A stretch of 64,000 nt of DNA, from the NCBI GenBank assembly GCA_041664285.1, contig JBAYLA010000001.1:227-64226 (forward strand), read 5' to 3'. Numbering within the stretch: the first letter of the stretch is position 1; each line of letters begins with the position of its first letter. Below the pieces are notes generated by a model, which had not been told where the DNA came from, searched no databases, and saw nothing but the letters and a program-made list of their open reading frames with translations. Of this stretch, positions 4,642 through 19,105 are shown piece by piece. The position numbers were made by a program, and so were the translations under genes. This stretch comes from Minisyncoccota bacterium (lineage in GTDB: Bacteria > Patescibacteriota > Minisyncoccia > Phycocordibacterales > UBA9973).

Positions 4642-5862
4642 TTAATGCAAGTGTGTATTTGGTAATACGTAATGTATTTTAGTTAATTTTTTTGCTAGAT
4701 TCTTTACCTTATTTTTTAAACTACTTTCTATTTTTGTCTTAGATACACAAGATATAATGATTTGAGATAGTAATATCAAATCACTTTCCTTAAGTCCTAA
4801 TCTACATTGTTCCTGTATACCAAACCTTAAACCTATTCTACTAGTAGATGGAATTTTCATTGGAGTTGTAATAATTCCAATTGAAGCTAATTTCTGTACG
4901 GTTTCTGTAACATTAGGAACATCAACACAAATTTGGTGTGTATTTGTTAAGTGAGGAAGTGGGCCAACAAGATTTAATTTACAACTCAACAGTTTGGCAA
5001 GATATCGTGTTTTATCTAAAATATCCTTCGCATATTCGGCGCCAAATTTTTCCATTTCAAGTACTGTAATTAATAGTGCTAATAAACTTCCAGTATGTAT
5101 GCTCGAGATGGTCTTATCAAACTTAGTATTTATAAGGTTAAATAAATTTTTATTGTTTAATAAAATAATTGCTTTTTGTGGCCCCGGAAAAGTTTTGTGT
5201 GTAGTCCCACCAAAGAAAAAGTTTTTATATTTGGGAAAATTATAAATATGTGAAAAATAAAATAGTTGAAGATGAGATATGTCATAATAGATAATCCAGT
5301 TTTTCGGTATTTTTTTTATAAGTTTATTTATATTCAACGGATTTAATGTAATGGTGTGATCAATATAAATTAGAATTTTTTCGTCCTTCCATTTATCGGT
5401 AATAATTTTTAATTTTTTATAATCAATATCCCAGTTTTTAAACTCAAGATTGATATTGTCTATCTCGAAACCATGCTTTTTTGCAATTCCTTCCGTTTTA
5501 CTGTGTCCACCATTCAAATTATCCATAATAATGATTTTATCAGTTACTTGGATTAGGGCAGACATTATCATATCCATTTGGTGAATTCCAGAAAGTCCTT
5601 TTGTTATGGCGTATTTTGTTTTATATATTGAGGAAAGTTTTTTATCTAGAATCTTTATGATATTTTCTAAATTTTCCCGTCCTGGCATAAAATATTTATT
5701 ACCAATCTTTAATGGTAAAATATAACGATTACCCATTTTACTTGAGTACATACTTGTAGCTAGATTGCTCATTACGTTTTCTGAGGGTATTAACGATATT
5801 GTAGTTTTTTCTTTTTGAAATTCACTAGAAATCATATCTAGTATTTTGTTATTTTTTTTCAT
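4642..5862 (-). CDS. divergent serine hydroxymethyltransferase-like fold-type-I PLP enzyme
   Basis: ISLIPSENVMS resembles GlyA LELIASENFTS. GGTTHKTFPGPQ resembles the GlyA PLP-lysine motif TTTTHKTLRGPR. Far more divergent than a typical glyA. Confidence 0.55.
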   Translation of the reverse strand: MKKNNKILDMISSEFQKEKTTISLIPSENVMSNLATSMYSSKMGNRYILPLKIGNKYFMPGRENLENIIKILDKKLSSIYKTKYAITKGLSGIHQMDMIMSALIQVTDKIIIMDNLNGGHSKTEGIAKKHGFEIDNINLEFKNWDIDYKKLKIITDKWKDEKILIYIDHTITLNPLNINKLIKKIPKNWIIYYDISHLQLFYFSHIYNFPKYKNFFFGGTTHKTFPGPQKAIILLNNKNLFNLINTKFDKTISSIHTGSLLALLITVLEMEKFGAEYAKDILDKTRYLAKLLSCKLNLVGPLPHLTNTHQICVDVPNVTETVQKLASIGIITTPMKIPSTSRIGLRFGIQEQCRLGLKESDLILLSQIIISCVSKTKIESSLKNKVKNLAKKLTKIHYVLPNTHLH

Positions 5863-5921
5863 ATGTTGTGGATATTTTGTTTATAATACTATGTTTTGTG
5901 CTATTCGTCAATAGGTGAGTT

Positions 5922-6830
5922 GTGGGGTTTTATAATACAAAGTATACTTGTTTAATGAAAACGATATCTGGCAATAATGATAAATATAATAAATATATTC
6001 CTTTGGATAAATCGTGGATTACACGTATGGGGGTCTTGGATATAATTCATGGATATAATGATATTGAGATTTTTTTAAACAAAAAAACAGATCTCAATGA
6101 TGATTTATTGGCATTAAAAAATGCCGGTGAAGCATGGAGAAATAATGTCCTGATTAATGTTGGAGAATCAGCAACCTTATATCGATTATTGCAATTTGCT
6201 TCCTGGAAATTAAATTTGAATAAAATATTTATAAAAGAAGGAACACTTAAAGATAGGAAAATAATAAATAATCCAAGTATTGTTAATCTCAACTTAAAAG
6301 AACTTTTAAAATTAGATAACCAAACCACTCAATGGGCCACAGCTTCAGTTATTATGGGCAATAAACAACGTATTCAAAATCCTCCTAATAAATTACAACA
6401 AACATACGATGCAGTAGATCATTGGAATAAACAAAGGCAAGCTGGGTTGGTCTGGGAACCACAATATGATGAGACAATACAAAAACAAGTTGAAACCTTT
6501 TTAGATTTTAAAAATGGTTTAAACGTAATATATATTCCTGTGTGTTCCGATGATTATTGTTTCGCTAGGGTTTTTGGGTGTATAACTAAAGAAGAAGGAA
6601 AGAAAAACTGGCCAAGTCTTGAGGGGCATGAAACTAATCGTATAAAAGAAATGGAAAAAGTAATTGAAGAAACTACCGCAGGAAATTTAATTAATTCAAA
6701 AGATCACAGAGTAATACAAGCTATGGCTATGTGGGGAGTAGTAAATAATAGAAAGTTAAATTTTAAATATAAAGAAGCAGTAAATAAATCTTGGCCAAAA
6801 TTTTGGGATTTTTTAGATTCATTAAAATAA
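5922..6830 (+). CDS. hypothetical protein with EPSP-synthase/MurA-like motifs (shortened)
   Basis: IPLDKSWITRMGVL resembles LPGSKSxSNRALLL. VGESATLYRLL resembles GNAGTAMRPL. TTQWATASVIM resembles SSQFLTALLM. ETNRIKEM resembles ETDRLxAM. Only 302 aa against ~430 for AroA. GTG start, with an alternative ATG at 5955. Confidence 0.3.
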   Translation: MGFYNTKYTCLMKTISGNNDKYNKYIPLDKSWITRMGVLDIIHGYNDIEIFLNKKTDLNDDLLALKNAGEAWRNNVLINVGESATLYRLLQFASWKLNLNKIFIKEGTLKDRKIINNPSIVNLNLKELLKLDNQTTQWATASVIMGNKQRIQNPPNKLQQTYDAVDHWNKQRQAGLVWEPQYDETIQKQVETFLDFKNGLNVIYIPVCSDDYCFARVFGCITKEEGKKNWPSLEGHETNRIKEMEKVIEETTAGNLINSKDHRVIQAMAMWGVVNNRKLNFKYKEAVNKSWPKFWDFLDSLK

Positions 6831-6840
6831 TGAATTTTGG

Positions 6841-7410
6841 TTAATTTGTTTCAAAAATTTTTTCTATACTTTCTGGTCCAACATAAAGTACTGTTCTTAA
6901 ATTTGGATATTTTTTAAAATCAAGATCGGCAAATCTTTTTTCCTTATCATCAATAAAAATAATTTCATCATCTTTAAATTGTTCGCATATCATTTCCACT
7001 GGACCCTTTTTGGTGTCTAAAACAGTAAAAATTTGAGTAAAAAGTGGCCCAAGGCCAGTTCTGCTTACTTTTTCAAGCTGATATTCGTTCACACCATGTG
7101 TAACCATATAACAGTTTTCCACCTTTAATCGCTTTATTCGATCAATAAGTTCATCATTAATAAAATTTTTACATTCTCCCATTATTTTCTCGCTCAGTTC
7201 CTCTTTACTTATTGAAGTTAAATTTTCACCTTTCAAGACTGAAGCAACTAAATTATGAAGAACCCAACCTTTCTCTTTTTCAATTTTGTAGTATTTTTTT
7301 ACTGTATCATACTGAACTCCAATCTCCTCGAAACACTTATACATGTGTTTTTTAAATTTCTCTGTATTAAAAAATAATACATCATCAAAATCAAAAATAT
7401 ATTTTGTCAT
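6841..7410 (-). CDS. HAD-superfamily hydrolase
   Basis: N-terminal motif I FDFDDVLF (DxDxV/T). 189 aa. Confidence 0.6.
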   Translation of the reverse strand: MTKYIFDFDDVLFFNTEKFKKHMYKCFEEIGVQYDTVKKYYKIEKEKGWVLHNLVASVLKGENLTSISKEELSEKIMGECKNFINDELIDRIKRLKVENCYMVTHGVNEYQLEKVSRTGLGPLFTQIFTVLDTKKGPVEMICEQFKDDEIIFIDDKEKRFADLDFKKYPNLRTVLYVGPESIEKIFETN

Positions 7411-7466
7411 ACGATTATATTAGCATAAATTTAGTATTATCTACAAACTGATAGTAATTTGAAAAA

Positions 7467-8708
7467 TTAAGATTTAACAGCCTTGTCAAAATCTATAAGA
7501 TAGATTCTTGGAATTCTATCAAGATCAACACTGCCATTTTTGTTACGGTAAAAACGCAAACAAAAGTTTGCATTATTCGCATGACCATGAGTAATTTCTA
7601 ATTCTTTTAATGTATTTATTATTTTATCTTTTTGTACATCTAAATATTCTTTAAAAGTGTCTCCAGAAAATGAATACCATTCATCAAGATTTAGATCTAG
7701 TACACCTGATGCGACATTAACCAATTGCGTATATTCACTATATTTAAAAGAATGTATCGGCTCTATGGGTATGTAATCGAAACCCGCCTTATTCCAATTA
7801 GCATAACTTTCGTATGCTTTTTGCCAAGCCAAAAAACAAGGTTCCTCAAAATGTCTAATGATTAGATTTTTTTTAAATTGATCACCTAGTAATAGTGTTA
7901 TCTCAGACCCGGTTTTTGATAATTTTTCGTGAGAAAAAGTTGACGGATTGCTGTTTTCACTTTTTGTGTATAAAGGTGGCTCAACAATTTGATTAAACTT
8001 TCTTTGTTGTTTAGCTGATTCATACTTTATTTTGACAATGCTTTTTAATTCCCCCTGTTTATTTATCGGTGCATATTGAACCATAGTCGCGGCTAATCTC
8101 TGTATTCTAACGTCTTCTTGATTTAGTGCTTCAAGTATTTTTTGGTATACAATTTCACGCAAATTGTCTTGTGACTCGATGGGGGCACTATCAATTTTTT
8201 TAGCCATTATCTTTTGTTTGCCAACATCATTAGAATTAAATGCATCAAGAATTCTTTTTAGTACAAGATATTTTATTCCATCTCTAGTATCTTCAGGTGT
8301 AAACTGAATCATGTTTACTGCTATTCTTTGTATTTCTATATTTGGATTATTTAAAGCTTCAATTATTTTTTTACATGTCATTTCTTTTAAACTTCTTTGC
8401 TGATCTTCAGGTGCATTATTTATTATTGAAGCAGCCATCCTTTGTATTTCAATATCATTGTTTTGCAATGCATCCATTATGTAAATGGTTATATTTTCCG
8501 CATCTTGGCTTAGAATATAGTTTTTTGTTTTTAAAACTGAGGGCTGACTGTCGTTGCTTTGTTCATGGACAACGGCCCTTGAGCCCAAAAGACTTTTACT
8601 TTGTAGGTATTTTTTGTAATCAATGTCTTCATATCCGTCTATTTTATACATGTTAAGTATTTCTTGTGAGATAGGTTTAATTTTTTCTGGATTAAAATTT
8701 TGCATCAT
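7467..8708 (-). CDS. HEAT/PBS-lyase-like repeat protein with C-terminal atypical kinase-like domain
   Basis: About four tandem ~38-aa repeats of the form (I/L)xEALNxxxIEIQR(I/L)Ax. The C-terminus has ITHGHANNANF (HGD-like catalytic loop with Asp replaced by His) and LIDFDKA (DFG-like). ATG start (MMQNF) at 8708; the ORF track begins at a TTG at 8735. Confidence 0.5.
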   Translation of the reverse strand: MMQNFNPEKIKPISQEILNMYKIDGYEDIDYKKYLQSKSLLGSRAVVHEQSNDSQPSVLKTKNYILSQDAENITIYIMDALQNNDIEIQRMAASIINNAPEDQQRSLKEMTCKKIIEALNNPNIEIQRIAVNMIQFTPEDTRDGIKYLVLKRILDAFNSNDVGKQKIMAKKIDSAPIESQDNLREIVYQKILEALNQEDVRIQRLAATMVQYAPINKQGELKSIVKIKYESAKQQRKFNQIVEPPLYTKSENSNPSTFSHEKLSKTGSEITLLLGDQFKKNLIIRHFEEPCFLAWQKAYESYANWNKAGFDYIPIEPIHSFKYSEYTQLVNVASGVLDLNLDEWYSFSGDTFKEYLDVQKDKIINTLKELEITHGHANNANFCLRFYRNKNGSVDLDRIPRIYLIDFDKAVKS

Positions 8709-8809
8709 ATATAAATTACTTAGTGAGTATAACAAAAATTTACCATTTTGAGGTAATTTGTAAAGGTTTTTTCATTTGAGTAAATACAATTTGGGAGTAT
8801 AATCATTTT

Positions 8810-8908
8810 ATGCAATGGTTTTTTATAGCTTTAGTAGCGCCATTTTTGTGGGCCTTGGTAAATATTGCTGATAATTATTTAGTTAAAAAATTATCAGGTA
8901 TGAGTTGA
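8810..8908 (+). pseudogene. 32-aa ORF resembling the N-terminus of an EamA/DMT transporter (probable gene remnant)
   Basis: MQWFFIALVAPFLWALVNIADNYLVKKLSGMS then stop. A TATAAT at 8796-8801 sits 8 nt before the ATG. Confidence 0.3.
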
Positions 8909-8935
8909 CATTAACAGCTCTTGAGATTTTATAGT
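8905..8935 (+). promoter_or_regulatory. sigma70-like promoter for the E1-like operon
   Basis: TTGACA at 8905-8910, a 19-nt spacer, TATAGT at 8930-8935. Confidence 0.4.
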
Positions 8936-8990
8936 ATACTTGTTATGTACTTCAAAAGTCTTAATTTTTAGGTTTAATAGAACCTTAAAT

Positions 8991-10064
8991 ATGATACAAG
9001 AATACGAATATAAGCCAAAAATATTAACTGAAACGGAAGTAAAAAAATTAAAAAAACAAAAACACATTAAGATTGTTGATGTATTTTCTAACCAATTAAA
9101 AGAACTTTTTATAATAAAAAATCTGGGATATGTTGGACAGGAAAAAGAAAAGGTGTACCAGACACGTGAGTTTAAAAATTTTTCCAAGAAAATGGAGAAA
9201 AAATATGTTTATGTATTTTATCCGTGGAATTTTTCCATTGTAAAAACAGTAAGGAAAGAAGATTATTTAGAACTAAAGACAAACAGAAATAGAGACTTGA
9301 TCACGAAAGAGGAACAAGTTAAATTACGAAATGCGAGAGTGGGTATTTTTGGAATGAGTGTTGGAAGCAATATCGCTTTTGTGTTGACTCAAGCTGGAGT
9401 TGCAAACGAAATTACAATTTCTGATTTTGATGAACTTGATACTACTAACTTAAATAGAATCATTGCTGGAGTGCATCAGATTGGGCTTAATAAATGTATT
9501 GTCGCTGCTCGGCATATATATGAAGATAATCCATTTGCAAAAATTACAGTTTTACCTAATGGAGTTAGTAAGCAAACCATAGAAAAACTTTTGAAACAAA
9601 AAAGACTTGATCTTATTGTTGATGAAATTGACAATATGGCTATAAAAATAGATATACGAGTGCTGGCGCAAAAATATAAAGTGCCAGTGGTAATGGTTAC
9701 GGATAATGGAGAAGGAATTGTTTTGCACATAGAAAGATATGACTTAGCGCATAAAAAAATATTTGGAAAAGAAAAAGTTTATTTTGAATCTCTTGTATCT
9801 TCTGGTTTTTCAAAAGAAAAAATTGCTGAGCTTATTATTTCTGATATTGTAGGGGGAGTAGGGAAGGTTGATAAAAGAATGCACCAATCTGTAACAAAAG
9901 TATTGCGAAAAGAACTGGTGTCTTGGCCACAGCTCGGATCGGCTGCTATTCTTGCGGGAGTTATGGCGACATATGCTATTAAACAAGTTATACTTGGATA
10001 TGATAAGAGGATTGACGTGCGTGGACATATTAATCCACTTGAAATTACTTACGGCACCCATTAA
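8991..10064 (+). CDS. ThiF/MoeB/E1-like adenylyltransferase with ~95-aa N-terminal extension
   Basis: RVGIFGMSVGSNIAFVLTQAGVANEITISDFDELDTTNLNRI matches the E1 nucleotide-binding fold (GxGxxG ... D ... NLNRQ). ATG at 8991 (MIQEYEYK); the ORF track starts at a TTG at 8940. Confidence 0.75.
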   Translation: MIQEYEYKPKILTETEVKKLKKQKHIKIVDVFSNQLKELFIIKNLGYVGQEKEKVYQTREFKNFSKKMEKKYVYVFYPWNFSIVKTVRKEDYLELKTNRNRDLITKEEQVKLRNARVGIFGMSVGSNIAFVLTQAGVANEITISDFDELDTTNLNRIIAGVHQIGLNKCIVAARHIYEDNPFAKITVLPNGVSKQTIEKLLKQKRLDLIVDEIDNMAIKIDIRVLAQKYKVPVVMVTDNGEGIVLHIERYDLAHKKIFGKEKVYFESLVSSGFSKEKIAELIISDIVGGVGKVDKRMHQSVTKVLRKELVSWPQLGSAAILAGVMATYAIKQVILGYDKRIDVRGHINPLEITYGTH

Positions 10065-10079
10065 TATTTAATTAATAAA

Positions 10080-11186
10080 ATGATAACTGAAATAACGAAT
10101 AATCCAGAAGTAAAAGCCCTACCAGAATTTGATAATCATCATGCTGTTTTTCTTTTAGAAAATAAGGATATTGGTTTTAGGGGATATATTTCTATTCATA
10201 GAAAAAATCCAGCACTTCCATCTTTCGGAGCAACCAGAATGTGGTCATATGAAACTGACATTGATGGACTTAGAGACTCTTTGCGTCTTTCTAGAATGAT
10301 GTCATATAAGGCTGCTTTAGCAGGGCTTGGTTGTGGTGGAGCTAAAGGAGTTATCATAGCCAGCACCCTTGATTCTAATAGGGAGAAATTTTTACGGGAA
10401 TATTCTCGTAATGTTGATCTTCTTCAGGGGAAATTTATTACTGGCACTGATGTTGGTTTACAACAAGAAGATTTAACTATCATGAAAGAAGAAACTCCCT
10501 ACATCGTCGGCTTTAATGATAATTCTGTTGAATTTACTACTCTCGGTATTTTTAATTCAATAAGTGTTTGCCTGCAAAAGGTATTCGGAACAGACGATGT
10601 TTCAAAACGAAGTTTCGCGATTCAAGGTTTGGGCAACATAGGTTCTTCTTTAATAAAATTCCTTTGGAGTTTAGGATGTAGAAATATATATGCTTCTGAT
10701 GTTAACCCAGAAAAAATAAAAATAATAAAAGAACAATTTCCAGAAATTATAATTGTTGATCCAAAAAAAATACACCAAAAAGCAGTAGATGTATTTTCTC
10801 CCTGTGCGTTGAGTGGAATCATTAATGAAAAAACAGTTAAAGAGTTTAACTGTAAAATTATTGCGGGCGGGGCAAACAATCAAATTGTAAAAGAATCTCT
10901 TGGTACTGATCTTCTTGAAAAAAATATTTTGTATGCACCTGACTACATAACAAATGCGGGAGGGCTTATTAGTGTTTTTGACGAATACAGTAATAAAATA
11001 TATAACAGAGAAATAGTAACTGCAAAAGTGTTAGAGATTAAAAATGTTTTAAATAAAGTTTTCACAATTAGTGATCAAAGTGGAAGACCTACAAATATCA
11101 TTGCAAATGAATTTGCGGAGAAAATTTTTAATAGTTTCAATAAATCTTTATGGGATCTCTCGTTCATAAAAAAACTCTTAAAATAG
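10080..11186 (+). CDS. Glu/Leu/Phe/Val-family amino-acid dehydrogenase (leucine/phenylalanine dehydrogenase-like)
   Basis: GATRMWSY, RLSRMMSYKAALAGLGCGGAKGVII and a C-terminal Rossmann fold (GLGNIG) match the ELFV_dehydrog signature (GG.R ... K.A..G...GGGK). Confidence 0.8.
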   Translation: MITEITNNPEVKALPEFDNHHAVFLLENKDIGFRGYISIHRKNPALPSFGATRMWSYETDIDGLRDSLRLSRMMSYKAALAGLGCGGAKGVIIASTLDSNREKFLREYSRNVDLLQGKFITGTDVGLQQEDLTIMKEETPYIVGFNDNSVEFTTLGIFNSISVCLQKVFGTDDVSKRSFAIQGLGNIGSSLIKFLWSLGCRNIYASDVNPEKIKIIKEQFPEIIIVDPKKIHQKAVDVFSPCALSGIINEKTVKEFNCKIIAGGANNQIVKESLGTDLLEKNILYAPDYITNAGGLISVFDEYSNKIYNREIVTAKVLEIKNVLNKVFTISDQSGRPTNIIANEFAEKIFNSFNKSLWDLSFIKKLLK

Positions 11187-12655
11187 AAAAATTACTTAAG
11201 GAAAAAAAGGAATCTTTTTGGATTAAACGTGGAGAAAAATCAGTGCTTGAATGTTTTAAAGAAGCAAAACAAATTCCAGCCTATAAAGATTTTTTAAAAA
11301 GAGAAAATTACAAAATACCTGCCATTAAAACAATTTTAGATTTTAAATTATTGCCGATGCCAAGCAAGAGCAATTATCTTCGCTCTTATCCTTTTGACAA
11401 ACTTTTTATAAAAAATCAATTTGTGGATATCCCTCGTGTTTTTTCTGCAACATCTGGTTCAACTGGAGAACCATTTTATTTTCCTCGAACTGAAATACAA
11501 GACAAGCAATATCAAATTTATGCGGAACTTTATTTAAGAAATAATTTCAATATACATAAAAAGAAAACCTTATATATTGATGCTTTTCCGATGGGTCCAT
11601 GGATTGGTGGAGTTTTTACCTATGAAGTAATTACACGAATTGCTCGTGAATCACAATATCCCTTAAGTATCATCACTACGGGCATTGATACTGCCTCAAT
11701 TATAAAAACAGTAAAAAAAATGGGTCAATATTATGATCAAATTATTATTGGGGCATATGGTCCGTTTACAAAAGATATTCTTGATACAGGAATAGATGAA
11801 GGAATTAACTGGAGACAGTACAATATTAAATTCATATTTTCCGCCGAAGCATTTCCCGAATCTTTTCGAGATTATGTTGGTAATATTGTCGGTAGTAAAA
11901 ATATTTTTTTAGACACACTTAATCACTATGGAACAGTTGACCTCGGCACAATGTCATATGAAACACCCATTTGTATTTTAATAAGAAAATTAGCTGAAAA
12001 AAATAAGTTTCTGTATAAAAAAATATTTGGGGATACAATAAAAATACCCACCTTAACTCAATATTTACCGGAATTATTTTATTTTGAGTCAGTTAATGGA
12101 AATCTTTATTGCACAAGTGAAAGTGCAATTCCACTTATAAGATATAATCTTGAAGATAGGGGAAATGTTATTGGTTTCAATGAAATGAAATCCATTTTTA
12201 AAGAGGTTAATATTGATCTTTTAAAAGAAGCTCAAAAGTGCAACATACAAGAGAGTATCTGGGAATTGCCTTTTGTCTATGTGTTTGAAAGAAGTGACTT
12301 TTCCGTAAGTTATTATGCTTTTCAAGTTTATCCTGGTCCTATCAGAAAAATACTTCTTCAGAAAGATGTTCAAAAAAAAGTTACCGGAAAGTTTACTATG
12401 GAATCGGGTTTTTCATGGAAGCAAAACCCTCAACTTGTTGTTAGTATTGAACTCAAAAAAAATATTTTACCGTCTAAACAACTTTCAAAGAATATTACGA
12501 AACTTGTACATAATCAATTATTGAAAACTCACTCAGAATACAGAGAAACAGTGAATCACTTTGGGACAAAGGCGCATGTTTCTGTTATACTTTTAGAAAA
12601 TGGAAACCAAGAACACTTTAAATCTGGAACAAAACAAAAATGGATAAAAAAATAA
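11150..12655 (+). CDS. PaaK / coenzyme-F390-synthetase-like adenylate-forming enzyme (ANL superfamily)
   Basis: FSATSGSTGEPFYFPRT at ~aa 100 matches the PaaK phosphate-binding motif SSGTTGKPT. 501 aa. Overlaps the upstream gene by 37 nt. Confidence 0.6.
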   Translation: MGSLVHKKTLKIEKLLKEKKESFWIKRGEKSVLECFKEAKQIPAYKDFLKRENYKIPAIKTILDFKLLPMPSKSNYLRSYPFDKLFIKNQFVDIPRVFSATSGSTGEPFYFPRTEIQDKQYQIYAELYLRNNFNIHKKKTLYIDAFPMGPWIGGVFTYEVITRIARESQYPLSIITTGIDTASIIKTVKKMGQYYDQIIIGAYGPFTKDILDTGIDEGINWRQYNIKFIFSAEAFPESFRDYVGNIVGSKNIFLDTLNHYGTVDLGTMSYETPICILIRKLAEKNKFLYKKIFGDTIKIPTLTQYLPELFYFESVNGNLYCTSESAIPLIRYNLEDRGNVIGFNEMKSIFKEVNIDLLKEAQKCNIQESIWELPFVYVFERSDFSVSYYAFQVYPGPIRKILLQKDVQKKVTGKFTMESGFSWKQNPQLVVSIELKKNILPSKQLSKNITKLVHNQLLKTHSEYRETVNHFGTKAHVSVILLENGNQEHFKSGTKQKWIKK

Positions 12656-13710
12656 AAGAAATACTTGAATACGGCGTGATGGCTCCTTCGGGTGATAATT
12701 CTCAACCGTGGAAATTTGTTATTTCTGATACGATACTTAAAATATATAATTTACCTGATAAAGATAATCCATATTTAAATTTTATGCAAAGTGGTTCTCT
12801 AGTTGCGCATGGTGCGTTACTAAAGAACATAGAAATAGCTTCATCAAAAGTAGGGCTAATATCAAAAATAAAATTGTTTCCATCATCGAATGACCCTAAT
12901 CTTATATCGGAAATATCCTTTGAAAACACGTCTCCAGCACAACAGATAGACCCCTTGTTTGAATTTATTTCTAAAAGAGTAACAAATAGACGACCTTATG
13001 AGAATAAAAAATTTTCTGAAAAAGAGAAAGTTCTTCTTGAAGAAGCTGGTGTTTTTGGGGACGTAGGATTACATTTTATAATCGATCCTGAAAATAAAAA
13101 ACGTGCTGGAGCTGCAAGCAGTATGGTTGAAATAATTATCTTGGAAAATAAATTATTGCATAGCTATCTCTTTAAAGATGTTATGTGGTCTGAAAAACAA
13201 GAAAGAAAAGAGAAGCATGGTCTTTATATAAAAACTATGGAATTTAATCCTATACAAAAATTTCTTTTTAAATTAGCTAGTAATAAACTATTAATGCATA
13301 TTGCTGTCAAACTTCATTTTTCTTATTTTATTGCAAAACAAGATGCTTTATTGTATGCAAGCGGTTCTACTATGTGCTTGTTCACTTTAAAAAAAATATC
13401 TTTAGAAAATTTTGTTAAGCTTGGAATGAAAATGCAAGAAATATGGCTCAAGGCAACATCTCTTGGGCTTGCATCCCAGCCAGTCACTGCAATTTTATTT
13501 TTAGGTTTCAAATTACAAAATGACCAAAATGATCAAATATTAAGTCAGAAACATAAAAATATTGCTTTTGAATCGTGCAAAAATATATTTTCTGCATTCA
13601 GCCTTAATTCAGAAGAAATACCTTTTATAATGTTTCGTATTGGTCATGCAAAAGATCCTTCAGCCCGTAGTAGTAGAAAAGAACCAATTATAAAAATAGA
13701 AAATAAATGA
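12640..13710 (+). CDS. nitroreductase-fold flavoprotein (long, 356 aa; SagB/McbC-like or tandem nitroreductase)
   Basis: The N-terminus EYGVMAPSGDNSQPWKFVI is the nitroreductase FMN-binding signature. The C-terminus IWLKATSLGLASQPV resembles the conserved C-terminal helix. Overlaps the upstream gene by 16 nt. Confidence 0.6.
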   Translation: MDKKIKEILEYGVMAPSGDNSQPWKFVISDTILKIYNLPDKDNPYLNFMQSGSLVAHGALLKNIEIASSKVGLISKIKLFPSSNDPNLISEISFENTSPAQQIDPLFEFISKRVTNRRPYENKKFSEKEKVLLEEAGVFGDVGLHFIIDPENKKRAGAASSMVEIIILENKLLHSYLFKDVMWSEKQERKEKHGLYIKTMEFNPIQKFLFKLASNKLLMHIAVKLHFSYFIAKQDALLYASGSTMCLFTLKKISLENFVKLGMKMQEIWLKATSLGLASQPVTAILFLGFKLQNDQNDQILSQKHKNIAFESCKNIFSAFSLNSEEIPFIMFRIGHAKDPSARSSRKEPIIKIENK

Positions 13711-13735
13711 GTTTTAGGTTATAATAAGAAAAATT

Positions 13736-15364
13736 ATGAATGTAATAGAAAATTTAGATATTTTATCAGTTGCTATAGCGGTTGCAGGTACTTTCATCCT
13801 TGGGTTTACCGTATTTTTTACCGACAAAAAAAGTATTACAAATAAAACATTCCTTTTATTTTCAATAATTACAGGGATATGGGGGTTGGCTAACTTTTTT
13901 GGGTATAGACTTACAGATCACAATATCGCGTTTTTATTATTGAGATTGGTTATGTTTTTAGCGGTATTGCAATCCTTATCTATTTTTCAGCTTTTTTATG
14001 TTTTTCCAAATGCAACAATAATTTTCCCTAAAATATATAAATACTTTTTTATGCCACTGATGTTGTTAGTAGCGTTAATATCAGCATCTCCGTTAGTTCT
14101 TTCTAGTATAAAAGAAGTATCAGAAATAGGAAATATAACAAAAATAACCAATGGTCCAGCCATTCCTCTTTTTGGAATTGTAAGCATTGGTTTGGTAATT
14201 TCAGCTCTTTACATATTTATACGAAATCTTCGTCAGACAAAAAACAGACAACTCGGAGTATACATAGAAATACTTATTGGCACAGCTCTCATGTTTGGAT
14301 TAATCATAACTTTTAATTTTATATTTCCTGCAATTTTTGAGAACTCAAAATATTTGCCTTTGGGCGCACTATTTACTTTTCCGTTTGTTATTTTTACAAC
14401 TTATGCAATATTATACCACCATCTTTTCAATATAAAAGTTGTTTCAACAGCTACTCTTGTTTTTCTTTTATCAATTATTTTATTCCTTGAAATAATATAT
14501 GCCGATTCCATTACACTTATTCTTTTTAGAAGCAGTATATTTTTATTGGTACTTGTCTTTGGTATTAATCTTATTCGTAGTGTCATGAAAGAAGTTAAGC
14601 AGCGTGAACAATTGGAAATCATGACCGGACAACTTGAGGTTGCAAATGATGATTTGAAAAATTTACTTAAACAAAGGGAAAGTTTGGTGCACTTGGTTAC
14701 TCACAAGGTGAAAGGATCTTTTACTCGTTCTAAATATATTTTTGCCGGATTACTTGATGGAACTTTTGGTGAGATAAGTCCCGTGGTAAAAAAGTATGCC
14801 GAACAAGGTTTGGAATCAGATAATGGGGGGATTCAAACAGTTGATTTAGTTTTGAGTGCTTCTAATTTGAGTAGTGGAACAGTAACATACGACATGAAGC
14901 CTCTTGATTTTAAGGAAATAATTTTGAAAGTTTTAGCTGATAAAAAAATTCAAGCTGAAGCCAAAGGTCTTCAAATGGAAAATATTATTCATGAAGATAA
15001 AGATGATGTTTATAATGTTTTGGGTGATGATTCTTGGCTTAAAGAGGCGGTTAATAATTTAATTGATAATTCTATTAAATATACAAAAGAAGGGAAGATA
15101 ACTGCTGAGCTCCATGATGGTAATGGTTTGGTTAAATTTTCTATTAAAGATACAGGTGTAGGTATTACAGAAGAAGACAAAAAACATTTATTTACTGAAG
15201 GTGGACGAGGTAAAGATTCTGTTAAAATAAATGTGGATAGTACTGGTTATGGTCTCTATTCTGTTAAATTAATCATCGAAGCTCATAAAGGACGTGTTTG
15301 GGCAGAATCAGAAGGGACAGGGAAAGGTTCTACTTTCTATATTGAGTTGCCGGCTACAAAATAG
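13736..15364 (+). CDS. membrane sensor histidine kinase
   Basis: About 7 N-terminal TM helices, a coiled coil, and an HATPase_c G-boxes region (DTGVGI ... GTGLGLYSVKLIIEAHKGRVWAES). Confidence 0.7.
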   Translation: MNVIENLDILSVAIAVAGTFILGFTVFFTDKKSITNKTFLLFSIITGIWGLANFFGYRLTDHNIAFLLLRLVMFLAVLQSLSIFQLFYVFPNATIIFPKIYKYFFMPLMLLVALISASPLVLSSIKEVSEIGNITKITNGPAIPLFGIVSIGLVISALYIFIRNLRQTKNRQLGVYIEILIGTALMFGLIITFNFIFPAIFENSKYLPLGALFTFPFVIFTTYAILYHHLFNIKVVSTATLVFLLSIILFLEIIYADSITLILFRSSIFLLVLVFGINLIRSVMKEVKQREQLEIMTGQLEVANDDLKNLLKQRESLVHLVTHKVKGSFTRSKYIFAGLLDGTFGEISPVVKKYAEQGLESDNGGIQTVDLVLSASNLSSGTVTYDMKPLDFKEIILKVLADKKIQAEAKGLQMENIIHEDKDDVYNVLGDDSWLKEAVNNLIDNSIKYTKEGKITAELHDGNGLVKFSIKDTGVGITEEDKKHLFTEGGRGKDSVKINVDSTGYGLYSVKLIIEAHKGRVWAESEGTGKGSTFYIELPATK

Positions 15365-15526: not shown

Positions 15527-16099
15527 ATGGTCTTCATGGACGCAAACGAAAAAAATTATTTCAAATTTACCGCAGCCCTAATTTTATGTTTACTTATCCG
15601 ACTTATTCCTTTTCGTGCTCCAAATATTGAGCCCATTTTAGCGACCTTAATGCCTTTTAGTAAAGTTTATGGAGCGTTTGTTGGGTTCTTTTTTGCTGTT
15701 TTAAGTATTTTACTTTACGATGTTATAACTGGGACACTAGGAATTCAAACTTTTTTTACTACTTTAGCTTATGGAATAATTGGTTTCTGGTCTGCTAATT
15801 ATTTTACGAAAAACAAAGCAGATAAATGGGGTTATGTGCGTTTTGCAATTTTAGGCACACTCTTTTTTGATGCATTTACTGGGCTGACTGTTGGTCCTAT
15901 GTTTTTTCATCAATCATTTATTGGATCTTTGATTGGACAAATCCCATTTACTTTTTTCCATTTACTTGGTAATGTTGTTCTTGCTTATACATTGAGTCCC
16001 GTTATTTATAATTTTTTGATTAAGAAAAAGATTCATCCGCCGTTAAGTAGGGAAAAGACATTAATCCCTGTCCTTAGTAGTACTCTTAATTCTAAATAA
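15527..16099 (+). CDS. small polytopic membrane protein (ECF-transporter S-component-like)
   Basis: 190 aa with 5-6 TM helices. The extended -10 TGTATAAT at 15511-15518 ends 8 nt before the ATG, so the transcript would be near-leaderless. Confidence 0.35.
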   Translation: MVFMDANEKNYFKFTAALILCLLIRLIPFRAPNIEPILATLMPFSKVYGAFVGFFFAVLSILLYDVITGTLGIQTFFTTLAYGIIGFWSANYFTKNKADKWGYVRFAILGTLFFDAFTGLTVGPMFFHQSFIGSLIGQIPFTFFHLLGNVVLAYTLSPVIYNFLIKKKIHPPLSREKTLIPVLSSTLNSK

Positions 16100-16108
16100 T
16101 TTAAAAAT

Positions 16109-18403
16109 ATGAAAAAAGCAGAAAAAATTTTAAAAAGTGAATTGAAAAAAATTAAATCAATTCGTAGAAGAACTGGAGAAGTCGTTCCTTTAGATTTAGA
16201 AAGAGTTGCTCGAGCTGTTTTTAGAGCTTTTGAGGTAACAGAGGAAGGAGGAGAGTCAGAATCTCATACAATAGCTAATCATGTTTTTAAAAATCTTTTA
16301 AAGCTTCAATCTGAGTTAACATCTGTCCATAAGGGCGCAAAATTTTTACCAACAGTTGAAATGGTTCAAGATTTAGTGGAAAAAGAGTTGATGAAAAATA
16401 GTTTTACCGAGACTGCTAAAAAATATATTCTTTATCGTAACAAACGTTCAGAACTTAGAGCAGTTTTCGGACCTGTATCAGAAACAGTGAGAGTAGCCGT
16501 AGAAGAATCTAGTAAATATTTTTATAGTCCTTATTCAGAATATATTTTTTATCAGTTTTATTCAAGGTGGGTTCCAGAATTAGGTCGCAGAGAGACTTGG
16601 GTTGAGGCTGTTGATCGTTACATGGATTATATGAAGGAAAATCTTGGGAACAAACTCACAGTCAAAGAATATGCTGATGTTCGAGAAGCCATCTTAAAGC
16701 AAGATATTTGCCCATCTATGCGTCTTTTGTGGTCTTCGGGGCGTGCATGTCGAAATTCAAATGTTTGGGCTTATAACTGTTCTTATATTGCTCCTACCTG
16801 TACTCAAGATTTAGGAGAAATTATGTATATTTCCATGTGTGGGGCAGGATTAGGTTTTGCGGTTGAGTGGGAGAATGTTCAACAATTTCCACAAATTAAA
16901 AAACAAGGAAAAGAAAAGCCAACTGTTCACGTTGTGGCAGATAGTAAAGAAGGTTGGGCGGATGCTTTTGTGTTTGGTTTGAATTCTTGGTTTGATGGTA
17001 AAGATGTAAAATTTGATTATTCACGTATTCGACCAGCTGGTGCGCGATTAGAAGTTGCTGGTGGAAGAGCTTCTGGGCCTCAGCCCCTGATGGATCTTAT
17101 GGAATTTGCTAGACGTAAAATTTTAGCTAAACAAGGTCGCCGACTTTCTAACTTAGATATGCATGACATCATTTGTCAGATTGGGATGATTGTGGTGGCA
17201 GGTGGAGTACGACGTAGCGCTCTTATTTCTCTTTCTGAATTAGAAGATACAGAAATGCGAGATGCGAAGAAGGGACAATTTTATTTAACTGAAGGACAGC
17301 GTAGTATGGCAAATAATTCTGCTGTTTATAATTCTAAACCTTCGGCTGAAGAATTTTTAAACGAATGGACTGCTCTAGTAAAGTCTAAGTCTGGAGAGCG
17401 TGGAATTTTTAATCGAGGTGGACTAGAGAAGCAAGTACCAGCACGTCGTTGGGCGGCTATTAAAGATGAAAGACAAATGGGAATGAATCCTTGTGGAGAA
17501 ATTTATTTGCGTTCTAGACAATTTTGTAATTTAACTAGTATCGTAATTCGCCCGAAGGACACAGCTGAAACATTGAAAAGAAAAATGGAATTGGCAACCT
17601 TACTTGGAACTTATCAATCTACCTTAACCAATTTTGGCTATCTATCAAAAAAATGGAAAGAAAATTGCGAAAATGAAAGATTGCTCGGAGTGTCCCTAAC
17701 TGGTTATTACGATAATCAAATTATTCGAGACGATAAAGTGCTCGATACTCTTCGAATTGATTCTATTGAAACAAATAAAAAGTACGCTAAGCGTTTTGGG
17801 ATCAATCCTTCTACCGCTATCACTTGCGTAAAACCTCATGGTAATTCTGGACAGCTTTTGGGTGTTGGTTCAGGTATGCATCCTTGGTATGCTCCATATT
17901 TTATCCGTCGAGTGCGTATTTCTCATACTGATACATTACTTCAAATGGCTCGGGATCAGGGTGTGCCGTGTTTACCAGAAGTTGGTCAATCTGAAGCGTT
18001 AGCCACTACTTTTGTTTTAGAATTTCCAGTCAAGGCACCAGAAGGAGCAATTTTTAAAGATGAAGTTTCTGCCTTGGATTTAATCAAGGAATGGAAAAGG
18101 CTTAAAGAGCATTTCGTGGAACATAATCCATCAGCTACTATTTATGTTGGGCCAGAAGAGTGGCTCGCTGTTGGTAACTTTGTTTATGAAAATTGGGATT
18201 CTATTGGCGGACTTTCTTTTCTTCCACGATCAGAACACGTTTATCAACTAGCTCCTTATGAGGCAATTACAAAAGAAGAATACGAAAGAAGAACAAAAGC
18301 TATTGGTAAAATTGATTTTTCTAAACTTTCTCAATATGAAGCAACAGACAATACTACTGGAGCCAAAGAATTTGCTTGTGTTTCGGGTGTTTGTGAGATT
18401 TAA
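16109..18403 (+). CDS. nrdJ: class II adenosylcobalamin-dependent ribonucleotide reductase
   Basis: N-terminal ATP-cone (GEVVPLDLERVARAV). NPCGEI active-site motif. 764 aa. Confidence 0.9.
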   Translation: MKKAEKILKSELKKIKSIRRRTGEVVPLDLERVARAVFRAFEVTEEGGESESHTIANHVFKNLLKLQSELTSVHKGAKFLPTVEMVQDLVEKELMKNSFTETAKKYILYRNKRSELRAVFGPVSETVRVAVEESSKYFYSPYSEYIFYQFYSRWVPELGRRETWVEAVDRYMDYMKENLGNKLTVKEYADVREAILKQDICPSMRLLWSSGRACRNSNVWAYNCSYIAPTCTQDLGEIMYISMCGAGLGFAVEWENVQQFPQIKKQGKEKPTVHVVADSKEGWADAFVFGLNSWFDGKDVKFDYSRIRPAGARLEVAGGRASGPQPLMDLMEFARRKILAKQGRRLSNLDMHDIICQIGMIVVAGGVRRSALISLSELEDTEMRDAKKGQFYLTEGQRSMANNSAVYNSKPSAEEFLNEWTALVKSKSGERGIFNRGGLEKQVPARRWAAIKDERQMGMNPCGEIYLRSRQFCNLTSIVIRPKDTAETLKRKMELATLLGTYQSTLTNFGYLSKKWKENCENERLLGVSLTGYYDNQIIRDDKVLDTLRIDSIETNKKYAKRFGINPSTAITCVKPHGNSGQLLGVGSGMHPWYAPYFIRRVRISHTDTLLQMARDQGVPCLPEVGQSEALATTFVLEFPVKAPEGAIFKDEVSALDLIKEWKRLKEHFVEHNPSATIYVGPEEWLAVGNFVYENWDSIGGLSFLPRSEHVYQLAPYEAITKEEYERRTKAIGKIDFSKLSQYEATDNTTGAKEFACVSGVCEI

Positions 18404-18406
18404 GGA

Positions 18407-18538
18407 ATGCTGCTAGATTTTTAAAATACAAACTTTTCTTCGGTACGAATTTTTTTTGGTGAAAAAAATTCTGAAGTTCTCGGCTCGACAGCCTACGAAA
18501 CCCCTGCGAAAAGTTGTATTATAAAAATTTAGCAGCAT
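18407..18538. repeat. 17-bp long-range inverted repeat enclosing a ~97-nt element between nrdJ and the adenosyltransferase gene
   Basis: ATGCTGCTAGATTTTTA (18407-18423) pairs with TAAAAATTTAGCAGCAT (18522-18538) with one G-U wobble. Inner hairpins are GAATTTTTTT...AAAAAAATTC and GGCT-cgac-AGCC. Confidence 0.5.
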
Positions 18539-18547
18539 ACAAAAACT

Positions 18548-19105
18548 ATGTTATATACAAAAAAAGGAGACAAAGGTATGACTAAAACTTTTGGATGCGA
18601 TCAAAGTATTTCCAAGAGTTCGATAGTGGCAGAAGCCTTAGGCGCACTAGATGAAACTAATTCTTTTTTAGGTTTAGCTCGGGCTAGAACAAAAGAAAAG
18701 ACTTTTGAAATTAAGGGTGAAAAAATAAATTTTTCCGATCTTATTTTAGAGATTCAACAAAATTTATTTATAGTACAAGCAGAGATTGCTGGAGCAACTT
18801 TGTCTATCGACATAGAAAAAGTAAATAGAATTGAAAAAATAGTTAATGAAATTGAAAAAATTTTACCACCAATTAAGAATTTTTTTATCAGTGGTGCAAC
18901 TAAAGACGGAGCAGTGTTAGATATTGGGAGAACTTTATCTCGAAAGGCTGAAAGACGAGTAGTGGCAGTAAAAGAAGAAGGGTTAGTAGATGTGAGTGAT
19001 GAAACCTTGTCCTATTTAAACAGACTTTCGAGCTTGCTTTATGCATTAGCTAGAATAGCGAGTCATCTAGATGGTGAGGAAGAAATTAAACCAGACTATA
19101 AATAA
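18548..19105 (+). CDS. PduO-type ATP:cob(I)alamin adenosyltransferase
   Basis: MLYTKKGDKGMTKTF ... ALGALDETNSFLG aligns with the PduO/MMAB N-terminus (YTKTGDKGETSL ... DELNS.IG). Confidence 0.8.
   Translation: MLYTKKGDKGMTKTFGCDQSISKSSIVAEALGALDETNSFLGLARARTKEKTFEIKGEKINFSDLILEIQQNLFIVQAEIAGATLSIDIEKVNRIEKIVNEIEKILPPIKNFFISGATKDGAVLDIGRTLSRKAERRVVAVKEEGLVDVSDETLSYLNRLSSLLYALARIASHLDGEEEIKPDYK

Follow-up and report, generated by a model that had tools for sequence, protein, structure and literature searches.

What could a bacterium make with an E1-like adenylyltransferase, an amino-acid dehydrogenase, a PaaK-like ligase and a nitroreductase-fold protein, and why should a membrane sensor kinase follow the four genes directly? 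The question is raised by an operon in a 64,000-nucleotide stretch of DNA (the window) from a Minisyncoccota bacterium, on which the searchable literature yielded nothing. We confirmed five open reading frames on the + strand, at the positions given for them in the original prediction, and list them here with the site that precedes them:

8905..8935, + strand: putative promoter-like site, read from the literal sequence as TTGACA (8905-8910), a 19-nt spacer and TATAGT (8930-8935)
8991..10064, + strand: ThiF/E1-like protein (E1) of 357 aa (open reading frame 8940-10064, start ATG 8991)
10080..11186, + strand: ELFV dehydrogenase (DH; Pfam PF02812 and PF00208)
11150..12655, + strand: PaaK-like ligase (LIG; weak PaaK matches, AlphaFold/Foldseek)
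12640..13710, + strand: nitroreductase-fold protein (NTR) of 356 aa (NF011424, NF005901)
13736..15364, + strand: membrane sensor histidine kinase (HK; HATPase_c)

The genes are packed as tightly as predicted, being separated in gene order by a 15-nt gap, a 37-nt overlap, a 16-nt overlap and, before the kinase, a 25-nt gap. The start at ATG 8991 is supported by a 357-aa product identical to P0121, a ‘ThiF family adenylyltransferase [Ca. Paceibacterota]’. The operon had also been credited with its own promoter. The TTGACA-19-TATAGT site is present, with a spacer that exceeds the consensus length, but its status as a promoter is without statistical support, as promoter-like matches between 8600 and 16200 are at chance level (39, versus 37.7 expected from shuffled sequence). 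The stretch is AT-rich.

The most informative matches came from the E1-like and nitroreductase-fold proteins. As the ThiF domain (66 bits) of the former begins at about residue 99 (Pfam/NCBIfam), the N-terminal extension of ~95 residues noted in the original prediction is real. The protein matches NF005901, the ‘Rv1355c family’, with 233 bits over profile positions 24-325, while NTR, which carries the predicted Nitroreductase domain, matches the same model with 159 bits over positions 375-713 (NF011424, 173 bits; Acg family, 122 bits). Each of the split proteins falls below the NF005901 cut-off of 476, whereas a fused CPR homologue (E1::NTR, L038), about 29% identical to actinobacterial members, matches over the full length with 534 bits. 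Concatenated, E1 and NTR of the window align along their entire length with a Rhodococcus RefSeq ‘Rv1355c family protein’, the E1-like protein being colinear with it and NTR, with its APSxxNSQPW and R-x-T-N-R motifs, colinear with its FDO half. Rv1355c, also called TrzS, synthesises oxazolones and acts on small molecules. In vitro it cyclises N-acyl-Trp in an ATP-dependent step and desaturates it in an O2-dependent one (PMC12856293), chemistry that has also been demonstrated for OxzB (10.1101/2020.06.11.147165) and TyzB/TyzC (PMC10404671). Homology thus indicates that E1 and NTR are, respectively, the ATP-dependent ThiF-like cyclase half and the flavin-dependent desaturase half of an oxazolone synthetase of the Rv1355c/TrzS type.

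The E1-like protein keeps the nucleotide loop G-x-G-M-S-V-G, the DxD...NLNR motif and the adenylation Asp of D-E-I-D; its AF2 model (pLDDT 90) has an E1 fold, and its closest solved sequence is the cyclodehydratase TcdA. It is predicted to be an ATP-dependent cyclodehydratase, the counterpart of the N-terminal half of TrzS/OxzB. NTR, for which Acg (2ymv) is the sole relative with a solved structure, is the counterpart of the C-terminal half of TrzS and a putative C-alpha/C-beta desaturase.

How does the window compare with known oxazolone pathways? It shares with the tryptazolone pathway TrzA/TrzS (Rv1356c/Rv1355c of mycobacteria and Rhodococcus; PMC12856293) a ThiF-like cyclase with an N-terminal extension and a nitroreductase-superfamily FDO, in full-length colinear alignment. 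Unlike in TrzA/TrzS, these modules are separate genes with two others between them, there is no TrzA-type N-acyltransferase, and a PaaK-fold ligase, an amino-acid dehydrogenase and a co-operonic histidine kinase are added. ThiF-like and nitroreductase-fold enzymes also act together on N-acyl aromatic amino acids in OxzA/OxzB (Pseudoalteromonas rubra), TyzA/B/C (M. tuberculosis) and NasY clusters, the last of which make N-acyl dehydrotyrosines (stieleriacines, thalassotalic and kyonggic acids). In TyzB/TyzC and NasY clusters the two enzymes lie on separate genes, as in the window, and some clusters of these types include a methyltransferase, as does locus L005. All known oxazolone clusters rely on an acyl-CoA N-acyltransferase (OxzA/TyzA/TrzA/NasY), in whose place the window has an ATP-dependent ligase, and the described Oxz/Tyz/NasY clusters have no dedicated sensor kinase, whereas the window operon does. 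Characterised oxazolones all derive from aromatic amino acids (PMC12856293), and the substrate amino acid here is probably aromatic too.

In the dehydrogenase, both ELFV_dehydrog_N and ELFV_dehydrog were found by Pfam, in agreement with the Leu/Phe/Glu-family call, and the protein scores 224 bits with LeuDH 6acf and 221 bits with TrpDH 5b37. Across 48 cluster-linked homologues the catalytic K68, K80, D115 and N261 are invariant, and in the pocket (LeuDH positions) A113 is replaced by Gly in all 48, G42 by Ala in all 48 and L40 by Phe in 42. We assign the enzyme to the Leu/Phe/Trp subfamily of NAD(P)-dependent dehydrogenases; its pocket is of the Phe/Trp type. The dehydrogenase and a class I/II aminotransferase (PF00155) replace one another exactly: 43 loci have the former, 27 the latter, none both and two neither.

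The ligase has no Pfam match and reaches just 18-21 bits against PaaK models, whose cut-offs are ~650-700. Its AlphaFold (AF2) model (pLDDT 89) matches PaaK1 in Foldseek with a target-normalised TM-score (TMt) of 0.80 at 15% identity, which bears out the PaaK-like label; the amide/ester ligase ClxA (E=2.6e-15) and the GH3 amido synthetase GH3.15 (2e-10) also match, the weaker structural matches, ClxA among them, having a TMt of 0.66. The family comprises 799 50%-identity clusters at E<=1e-30, is ~50% identical across CPR classes and has invariant adenylation motifs including TSGSTG, YGT and the C-terminal Lys. The model and motifs point to a PaaK-fold adenylate-forming enzyme of a distinct, mostly CPR family. 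ClxA and NatL2 of benzoxazole pathways and the GH3 acyl-acid amido synthetases share the PaaK/ANL-type fold and pass an acyl-adenylate straight to an amine or hydroxyl without CoA, ClxA forming both amide and ester bonds (PMC12519233). We propose that the window ligase likewise catalyses a CoA-independent N-acylation, although it is only ~13-15% identical to these enzymes, its best structural match is still the CoA ligase PaaK1, and it may form a CoA thioester rather than an amide.

To assess conservation of the gene set, we used 40 species-level loci whose flanks extend for 6 kb or more. All 40 combine ligase and E1; the kinase follows within 8 kb in 38, and NTR is present within 8 kb in 32, the dehydrogenase in 27, a response regulator (RR) in 24 and a hydrolase (ABH) in eight. 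Two of the eight loci in which NTR was undetected within 8 kb carry it ~10 kb away (L052, L064); several NTR-less loci consist of LIG-E1-HK plus an aminotransferase. The enzymes are also fused in many combinations: LIG::E1 or E1::LIG (L001, L020, P0342), E1::NTR (eight CPR loci), NTR::ABH, E1::ABH, DH::LIG (L085, P0277) and the triple fusion DH::LIG::E1 (P0316). The gene set is not a chance neighbourhood. The original prediction would have yielded had these been housekeeping MoeB, GDH and PaaK enzymes with no conserved co-occurrence; instead, co-occurrence is very strong, and all three proteins lie far below the curated cut-offs of those families.

Together, these data lead us to a model, to which we assign a probability of roughly 0.55, in which the operon directs CoA-independent biosynthesis of an oxazolone or N-acyl-dehydroamino acid. 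The Phe/Trp-type dehydrogenase, or the aminotransferase in other lineages, would convert between an amino acid with a bulky hydrophobic or aromatic side chain and the corresponding 2-oxo acid; as no fatty acyl-CoA pool is evident in these organisms, we favour the 2-oxo acid as acyl donor. The ligase would adenylate a carboxylic acid and transfer it straight onto an amino acid's amino group, giving an N-acyl amino acid and standing in for OxzA/TyzA/TrzA/NasY. The E1-like enzyme would then adenylate the alpha-carboxylate of this intermediate and cyclise it to a 5(4H)-oxazolone, and NTR would desaturate C-alpha/C-beta, so that the end product would be an unsaturated oxazolone or, once the ring opens, an N-acyl-dehydroamino acid. 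The TrzS homology of E1 and NTR, the ligase fold, the intact catalytic residues, the conservation, the fusions and the exchange of dehydrogenase for aminotransferase are observed; the substrates, amide formation and product are what we infer from them.

Several observations bear on this model. An acyltransferase was detected neither among the scanned window genes nor among genes recorded within ~10 kb, and no acyltransferase family recurs in the loci, which favours a CoA-independent route. Against the pathway, desaturation by TrzS requires O2, and many of these organisms inhabit anoxic groundwater; the ligase shares just 15% identity with any solved enzyme; NTR comes in two subtypes, Rv1355c-like and Acg-like; and, as NTR is absent from some loci, an unsaturated oxazolone cannot be the universal product.

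Would a different chemistry explain the same genes? A dehydrogenase or aminotransferase with a PaaK-type ligase is the usual start of Phe/Trp degradation or fermentation, and phenylacetate-CoA ligases are the best solved structural matches of the ligase. The operon could then salvage aromatic amino acids through arylpyruvate and an aryl-CoA thioester, with the kinase sensing the substrate. We regard this as improbable: no locus has a decarboxylase, a 2-oxoacid:ferredoxin oxidoreductase or downstream paa genes, the ligase scores are far from the PaaK cut-offs, and covalent fusion of the ligase to the E1-like cyclase, and thereby its linkage to the FDO, has no catabolic role. The original prediction looked instead to azol(in)e RiPP machinery (McbB/McbC, SagC/SagB), in which an E1-like protein is likewise paired with a nitroreductase-fold FMN dehydrogenase. 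In a RiPP pathway of this or the microcin C type, E1 would bind or adenylate a precursor peptide and NTR would oxidise the heterocycle; MccB and PaaA, which have N-terminal peptide-binding domains, do align over the full E1 model, but at ~11 Å rmsd. The McbBCD and SagBCD systems depend on a precursor peptide and on a cyclodehydratase of the YcaO type, and their E1-like partner serves for docking, whereas the window E1 retains its adenylation residues. As originally stated, no YcaO was found among called genes within 10 kb on either side; the SagB-type and ocin-ThiF models do not match the window proteins, the sole small ORF at the locus (8811-8909) is not conserved, and no small ORF is conserved across ~80 loci. 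With E1 and NTR matching the two halves of NF005901, their best family match, and L038 above its cut-off, the RiPP analogy is the wrong reference; the ~95-aa domain is common to TrzS, which acts on small molecules, and a RiPP role is largely refuted and very improbable. The broader suggestion of an amino-acid-derived metabolite fits; TrzS-type enzymes act on N-acyl amino acids and not on peptides. Also largely refuted, and least probable of all, is the suggested carrier-protein thiocarboxylation (ThiS/MoaD-like), or a ubiquitin-like conjugation or anti-phage E1 system. The E1 core weakly matches ThiF/MoeB (45-66 bits) and PADLOC E1-E2 models (<=48 bits), but all of these matches fall far short of the cut-offs and reflect the Rossmann core only. 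The E1-like protein has no CxxC motif, rhodanese domain or catalytic Cys loop. Thiocarboxylation is unsupported, as the cluster lacks both a sulfur-carrier protein and a rhodanese domain, and neither the operon nor related loci contain a small beta-grasp protein or an E2/JAB partner. Overall, the domain calls and the observation of the gene set were confirmed and their interpretation was partly supported.

Finally, we return to the kinase, which scores 83 bits with HATPase_c (Pfam) and keeps a conserved phospho-acceptor His inside an unusual H-box, LVTHKVKGSF. Its close homologues carry HisKA_7TM (PF16927) and PF00512, in line with the predicted 7-TM kinase, although it has ~9 hydrophobic segments and not exactly seven. 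Rather than merely following the operon, it is a conserved member of the module, co-operonic with the pathway: it lies 3' of the cluster in the 38 loci and ~10 kb off in the other two, the gap to the preceding cluster gene has a median of 13 bp (66 of 73 gaps <150 bp), and the two sensor homologues that were located independently on long contigs both lie behind E1-DH-LIG-NTR as well. Autoinducer loci such as CqsA/CqsS, LuxM/LuxN and agrBDCA also place small-signal synthesis genes beside a polytopic membrane histidine kinase; their proteins are unrelated and their chemistry differs, and what they share with the window operon is the layout. It is possible, and we suggest it tentatively, that the co-transcribed kinase detects the lipophilic product, or else a precursor of it, and relays the signal via a stand-alone receiver protein.

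Adjacency indicates co-regulation and is no proof of ligand identity; it does not distinguish a receptor from a regulator. The same biosynthesis could serve to make an antimicrobial, antioxidant or membrane-active metabolite, with a kinase that responds to an external cue, be it the host, a nutrient or envelope stress, and that only regulates the operon or is expressed along with it. The M. tuberculosis tyz cluster is linked to oxidative-stress resistance (PMC10404671), N-acyl tyrosine derivatives act as antimicrobials or shape communities (PMC10404671; PMC12479983), and LIG-E1-NTR occurs with no kinase at all in a high-GC locus from outside the CPR (L035), which, like the lack of a response regulator adjoining the window kinase, speaks against a sensor of the product. 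Even so, we consider an external cue rather unlikely. As in autoinducer synthase/receptor layouts, the kinase gene shares the transcription unit of the pathway and is downstream in it, not upstream or divergent; the response regulators adjacent to other clusters are stand-alone receivers without a DNA-binding domain, a poor fit to a simple transcriptional regulator of the operon; and kinase class tracks enzyme class, Rv1355c-like NTR occurring with a short HK and the aminotransferase with a long HK, which could be simple phylogeny.

Collectively, the operon is a split, re-equipped version of a recently discovered oxazolone synthetase, for whose products a signalling role has been raised (PMC12856293). 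As it sits directly before a membrane sensor kinase across CPR/Patescibacteria, it may be a small-molecule signalling system, here in a tiny-genome member of that group.

The operon comprises five tightly packed genes on the forward strand. All five were found as first described, and Pfam and NCBIfam agree on their domains:

8991-10064 (+), ThiF/E1-like gene (E1), 357 aa from the ATG at 8991; open reading frame 8940-10064
10080-11186 (+), ELFV dehydrogenase (DH); Pfam and NCBIfam
11150-12655 (+), PaaK-like ligase (LIG); fold match to PaaK1, no Pfam match
12640-13710 (+), nitroreductase-fold protein (NTR), 356 aa; Pfam and NCBIfam
13736-15364 (+), histidine kinase (HK); Pfam HATPase_c

We take the ATG at 8991 as the true start of E1, and 357 aa as its length, because the protein read from there is identical to a database protein (P0121) from a Candidatus Paceibacterota MAG. 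An exact-sequence database lookup returned no record of the window NTR. The promoter proposed for the operon, TTGACA-19-TATAGT, is literally in the sequence, but our promoter and terminator scan of this AT-rich DNA (window GC about 32%) stayed at chance level, with 39 promoter-like matches found and 37.7 expected. The window also holds a tmRNA and tRNAs. A 32-aa open reading frame (MQWFFIALVAPFLWALVNIADNYLVKKLSGMS; 8811-8909, +), a called gene in the ENA copy of the contig, stops right at the promoter-like site and resembles, by eye, the N-terminal helix of a membrane transporter. None of the related loci has a counterpart of it 5' of the cluster, so it is probably spurious or a leftover, and it was ruled out as a precursor peptide on the same ground.

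Other neighbors of the operon can be described briefly. Divergent from it, at 7467-8735 (-), is a 422-aa protein with internal repeats of type 'NxxIEIQRxAxxxI', which matches no Pfam, NCBIfam or PADLOC family and is not kept beside the cluster in other loci. Just 3' of HK, an ECF-type S-component-like membrane protein with weak riboflavin-type ECF matches (15527-16099, +) is followed by a 764-aa ribonucleotide reductase with an ATP-cone, for which faint Pfam matches suggest class II (16109-18403, +), and by a PduO-type cob(I)alamin adenosyltransferase (18548-19105, +). If the reductase is of the B12-dependent class II, the genes from 15527 to 19105 would look like a module of B12 uptake and activation plus reductase, and the S component may be a cobalamin rather than a riboflavin transporter.

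Both E1 and NTR match NCBIfam NF005901, the 'Rv1355c family', a model of 722 positions with a curated cut-off of 476 bits. E1 covers profile positions 24-325 (233 bits, E=6e-69, versus 66 bits on its best ThiF/MoeB model) and NTR covers positions 375-713 (159 bits; 173 bits on the related NF011424). Since they match different parts of this model, on sequence grounds they are the two halves of a known fusion protein, encoded separately. The split proteins do not reach the whole-protein cut-off (233 + 159 = 392 bits), which a fused E1::NTR homologue from a Patescibacteria (CPR) cluster of the same kind (L038:11488-13719) exceeds with 534 bits over positions 12-715; two further fusions fall under it, at 377 and 381 bits. 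When concatenated, window E1 and NTR are colinear with a plasmid-borne Rhodococcus protein, 'Rv1355c family protein' in RefSeq; the alignment takes in the N-terminal extension, nucleotide loop, adenylation Asp, D.D....NLNR motif and FMN-type motifs. The non-E1 N-terminal domain originally predicted for E1 is present, and with the ThiF-like domain it matches the N half of NF005901.

Individual residues were also compared. The G-x-G-x-S-x-G loop is kept, the D of the window 'VDEIDN' aligns with the 'EECD' motif of the Rhodococcus protein, and E212 and D214 of window E1 are invariant in 39 homologues. In TrzS (Rv1355c), an oxazolone synthetase that joins a ThiF-like cyclase to a flavin-dependent desaturase, the adenylation Asp is D217, and R540 and Q651 of the desaturase matter (PMC12856293). 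Our match of the adenylation Asp is by motif, via the Rhodococcus protein, and not by the numbering of M. smegmatis TrzS D217. Arg residues near the expected region of the Rhodococcus protein, which is placed only approximately, are not kept in the NTR subtype of the window; across loci there are two subtypes, Rv1355c-like and Acg-like. The closest solved sequence to window E1 is TcdA, an E1-type cyclodehydratase, and the best structural match of its model is AclA, on which our literature search found no paper. The only solved relative of window NTR is Acg, a reference also used by the TrzS authors (PMC12856293).

TrzS converts N-acyl-tryptophan to N-acyl tryptazolone by ATP-dependent cyclisation, then O2-dependent desaturation (PMC12856293). 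The same chemistry has been shown for OxzB (bioRxiv 10.1101/2020.06.11.147165) and TyzB/TyzC (PMC10404671), and inferred for N-acyl dehydrotyrosine clusters (PMC12479983). Each of the oxzAB, tyzACB, trzAS and nasY clusters has an adjacent N-acyl amino acid synthase (OxzA, TyzA, TrzA and NasY). We found no such synthase or N-acyltransferase in the scanned or recorded genes near the window operon, nor does one recur across the roughly 80 related loci. Instead, the operon has the PaaK-fold LIG in place of the N-acyltransferase, and LIG and DH lie between the two synthetase halves.

LIG has no Pfam AMP-binding match and stays far under the cut-offs of the PaaK models TIGR02155 (18.4 bits, cut-off 646) and NF041878 (21.4 bits, cut-off 700). 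LIG and PaaK have only the fold in common: the AlphaFold model of LIG (pLDDT 89) fits PaaK1 at 15% identity, with a TM-score normalised to the target (TMt) of 0.80. Weaker structural matches included a GH3 amido synthetase and ClxA (TMt 0.66). As ClxA and NatL2 need no CoA to pass the acyl group of an adenylate straight to an amine or hydroxyl (PMC12519233), they are by analogy a precedent for, although not proof of, CoA-independent acyl transfer by LIG. The LIG family is sharply bounded, a search of 1.84 billion representatives yielding 799 50%-identity clusters at E<=1e-30. Members from different CPR classes share about 50% identity, with no variation in the adenylation motifs. DH belongs to the ELFV family and its Leu/Phe/Trp subfamily, is equally near LeuDH and TrpDH, and is not a ScyB equivalog (270 bits on NF035922, cut-off 600). 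The catalytic residues K68, K80, D115 and N261 are invariant in 48 cluster-linked homologues, and the pocket position of LeuDH Ala-113 is always Gly in these 48, as in Phe/Trp dehydrogenases.

Scanning one genome per species, we found LIG in 263 genomes, fetched 80 loci and annotated their open reading frames with phmmer seeds. By record title, the loci come from Paceibacterota, Nomura-, Magasanik-, Doudna-, Roizman-, Gottesman- and Woykebacteria, Saccharimonadales and others. With the E1 seed read from 8991, E1 was found in all loci (400-612 bits in loci of the window type). A search for conservation of the gene neighborhood, proposed with the original prediction, showed the genes to co-occur across CPR. 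Counting presence within 8 kb among the 40 loci with at least 6 kb of flank on each side, we obtained:

E1, 40/40 loci
kinase, 38/40 loci, with a kinase about 10 kb away in the remaining two
nitroreductase, 32/40 loci
dehydrogenase, 27/40 loci
stand-alone receiver protein, 24/40 loci
alpha/beta hydrolase (ABH), 8/40 loci

Gene order varies, from the E1-DH-LIG-NTR-HK of the window to the commonest, DH-LIG-E1-NTR-(ABH)-HK. Fusion proteins (LIG::E1, E1::LIG, E1::NTR, NTR::ABH, E1::ABH, DH::LIG and a 1242-aa DH::LIG::E1) bind the enzymes into one pathway. In loci without DH, a class I/II aminotransferase adjoins LIG: 43 loci have only DH, 27 only the aminotransferase, none both and two neither. 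This non-orthologous displacement shows that interconversion of an amino acid and its 2-oxo acid is an integral step. The loci fall into three classes: an Rv1355c-like NTR with DH and a short kinase, which is the class of the window; an Acg-like NTR with a hydrolase and DH; and an Acg-like NTR or none with the aminotransferase and a long kinase. We found no recurrent transporter, acyltransferase, carrier protein or other extra gene in the related loci; candidate extra 'families' proved to be antisense shadow ORFs or lineage synteny (Mur ligase, FolD, MurI).

Several single loci deserve mention. Microgenomates-type clusters (L005-L007, 7185-7997) carry a SAM-dependent methyltransferase between DH and LIG, together with an NTR::ABH fusion, and this insertion parallels the methyltransferase-ThiF-nitroreductase sets of stieleriacine clusters (PMC12479983). 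Numerous loci of 30-40% GC whose gene content is CPR-like carry the label 'uncultured Gammaproteobacteria' in TPA assemblies, one of them on a 938-kb 'chromosome' (OZ246401.1, L039); these labels look like taxonomic misassignment of Patescibacteria MAGs. Outside CPR, LIG-E1-NTR occurs at 5527-9292 of a 62% GC contig labelled Polyangiaceae (L035, CAYRKE010000052.1), near genes for an arylsulfotransferase and a TonB-dependent receptor. This locus lacks a kinase, a dehydrogenase and an aminotransferase, and its ligase is 51% identical to that of the window, which suggests horizontal transfer of the trio. On a plasmid of Kitasatospora sp. NBC_00070 (L090, NZ_CP108248.1; 7146-10030), a 616-aa 'ThiF family adenylyltransferase' with an extra N-terminal region of about 285 aa precedes a ketoacyl-ACP synthase III and a LuxR-type regulator. 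With the fused protein of L038 as query, its E1 part is 39% identical to the E1 half, more than the roughly 29% of mycobacterial TrzS-type proteins over full length, although the lengths compared differ. This may be another uncharacterised small-molecule ThiF-like system.

HK has the features of a two-component sensor kinase: a HATPase_c match (83 bits), an aligned and conserved phospho-acceptor His and a polytopic N-terminal sensor, with about nine hydrophobic segments in the protein. The divergent H-box of the window subgroup escapes Pfam. Cluster orthologues and a homologue with 83% identity carry the PF16927 (HisKA_7TM) domain, which gave no match at E<=0.01 in window HK itself. In one MAG (L093, 7423-9044), the kinase is split into 192-aa and 347-aa genes abutting at 8001, and the cause could be a misassembly, a frameshift or decay of the receptor. 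Response regulators adjoining the cluster elsewhere are stand-alone receiver domains. There is none next to HK in the window, where the only receiver gene of the 64 kb (35656-36051, +) lies between pilB and pilT and encodes a protein 37% identical to the receivers that flank the cluster elsewhere. The type IV pilus operon around it (33833-38311, +) includes PilB with an MshEN domain (33833-35575) and PilT (36041-37099). In only three of the roughly 80 loci do pilus genes border the cluster, and the link to type IV pili is a weak lead. Two gene orders seen are HK-RR-PilB-PilC (L063) and PilB-PilC-RR(divergent)-DH-LIG (L045), RR being the response regulator.

The pairing of E1 and NTR, as in azol(in)e RiPP (TOMM) machinery, had raised peptide modification as one possibility. 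The window cluster has none of the hallmarks of those systems: YcaO is absent within 10 kb on either side, as first noted, neither SagB-type nor ocin-ThiF-like NCBIfam models match at E<=0.01, and related loci hold no conserved small ORF that could be a precursor peptide. With partners missing and scores low, we rejected a RiPP system, and for the same reasons sulfur-carrier activation and the carrier-protein thiocarboxylation system that had also been offered. An anti-phage E1 or defence system was rejected as well, PADLOC giving only weak generic E1-core matches. Aromatic amino-acid catabolism could make use of a dehydrogenase like DH, but it is unlikely given the enzyme fusions and the missing downstream genes.

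We instead propose a biosynthetic route. DH, or the aminotransferase, would interconvert a bulky or aromatic amino acid and its 2-oxo acid; LIG would adenylate an acid and N-acylate an amino acid without CoA; E1 would cyclise the product to an oxazolone, which NTR would desaturate; and HK would sense the product or a precursor. For the acyl donor of LIG we infer, and prefer, a 2-oxo acid, on three grounds: DH forms the N-terminal part of its fusion with LIG, the genes usually run DH-LIG-E1-NTR, and there is no enzyme that uses acyl-CoA. The desaturation step carries caveats: NTR is missing within 8 kb in 8/40 loci, it comes in two subtypes, and the O2 dependence of the reaction may not fit anoxic habitats.

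The role of the kinase is where the readings part. We put at roughly one in four the chance that the cluster is a CPR/Patescibacteria-wide autoinducer-like system, with an oxazolone or N-acyl-dehydroamino-acid as signal and HK as its receptor, acting via the stand-alone receiver and possibly on type IV pili. Such a signal would be built without CoA or fatty acids, from a 2-oxo acid supplied by DH or the aminotransferase and an amino acid, and variants of the enzymes and kinase would define lineage-specific 'dialects'. The strongest rival keeps the same biosynthesis and makes the kinase a regulator answering another cue; the L035 trio, which lacks a kinase, is a caveat to counting HK as part of the pathway. 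Within CPR, HK is co-operonic with the cluster, with a median gap of 13 bp to the preceding cluster gene and fewer than 150 bp in 66 of 73 gaps. A reverse search from the HK sensor domain returned 12 proteins; the two on long contigs both lie 3' of E1-DH-LIG-NTR (n=2).

CPR bacteria have genomes of roughly 1 Mb, and to our knowledge almost no specialised metabolism has been described in them. Oxazolone synthetases were reportedly discovered only in 2021. We found no description of this CPR cluster in the literature searched. According to a 2025 review, OxzB alone among ThiF-like enzymes has been validated as acting on a small molecule (PMC12596934), and the physiological role of oxazolones has been called 'a major unresolved question' by the TrzS authors, who note their resemblance to signalling molecules (PMC12856293). 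Here, a re-equipped form of oxazolone chemistry appears to be kept across many CPR classes, its genes nearly always sharing a transcription unit with a membrane sensor kinase. The predicted enzymology, a PaaK-fold, CoA-independent N-acyl-amino-acid ligase with possibly a 2-oxoacyl donor, could serve biocatalysis. The cluster offers a testable candidate role, signalling, for oxazolone-type molecules, and a testable candidate means by which episymbiotic CPR cells might detect each other or their hosts. If the autoinducer-like reading is true, oxazolone-class metabolites would gain in HK their first cognate receptor, and these ultra-small episymbionts would have in the cluster their first proposed endogenous system of small-molecule signalling.
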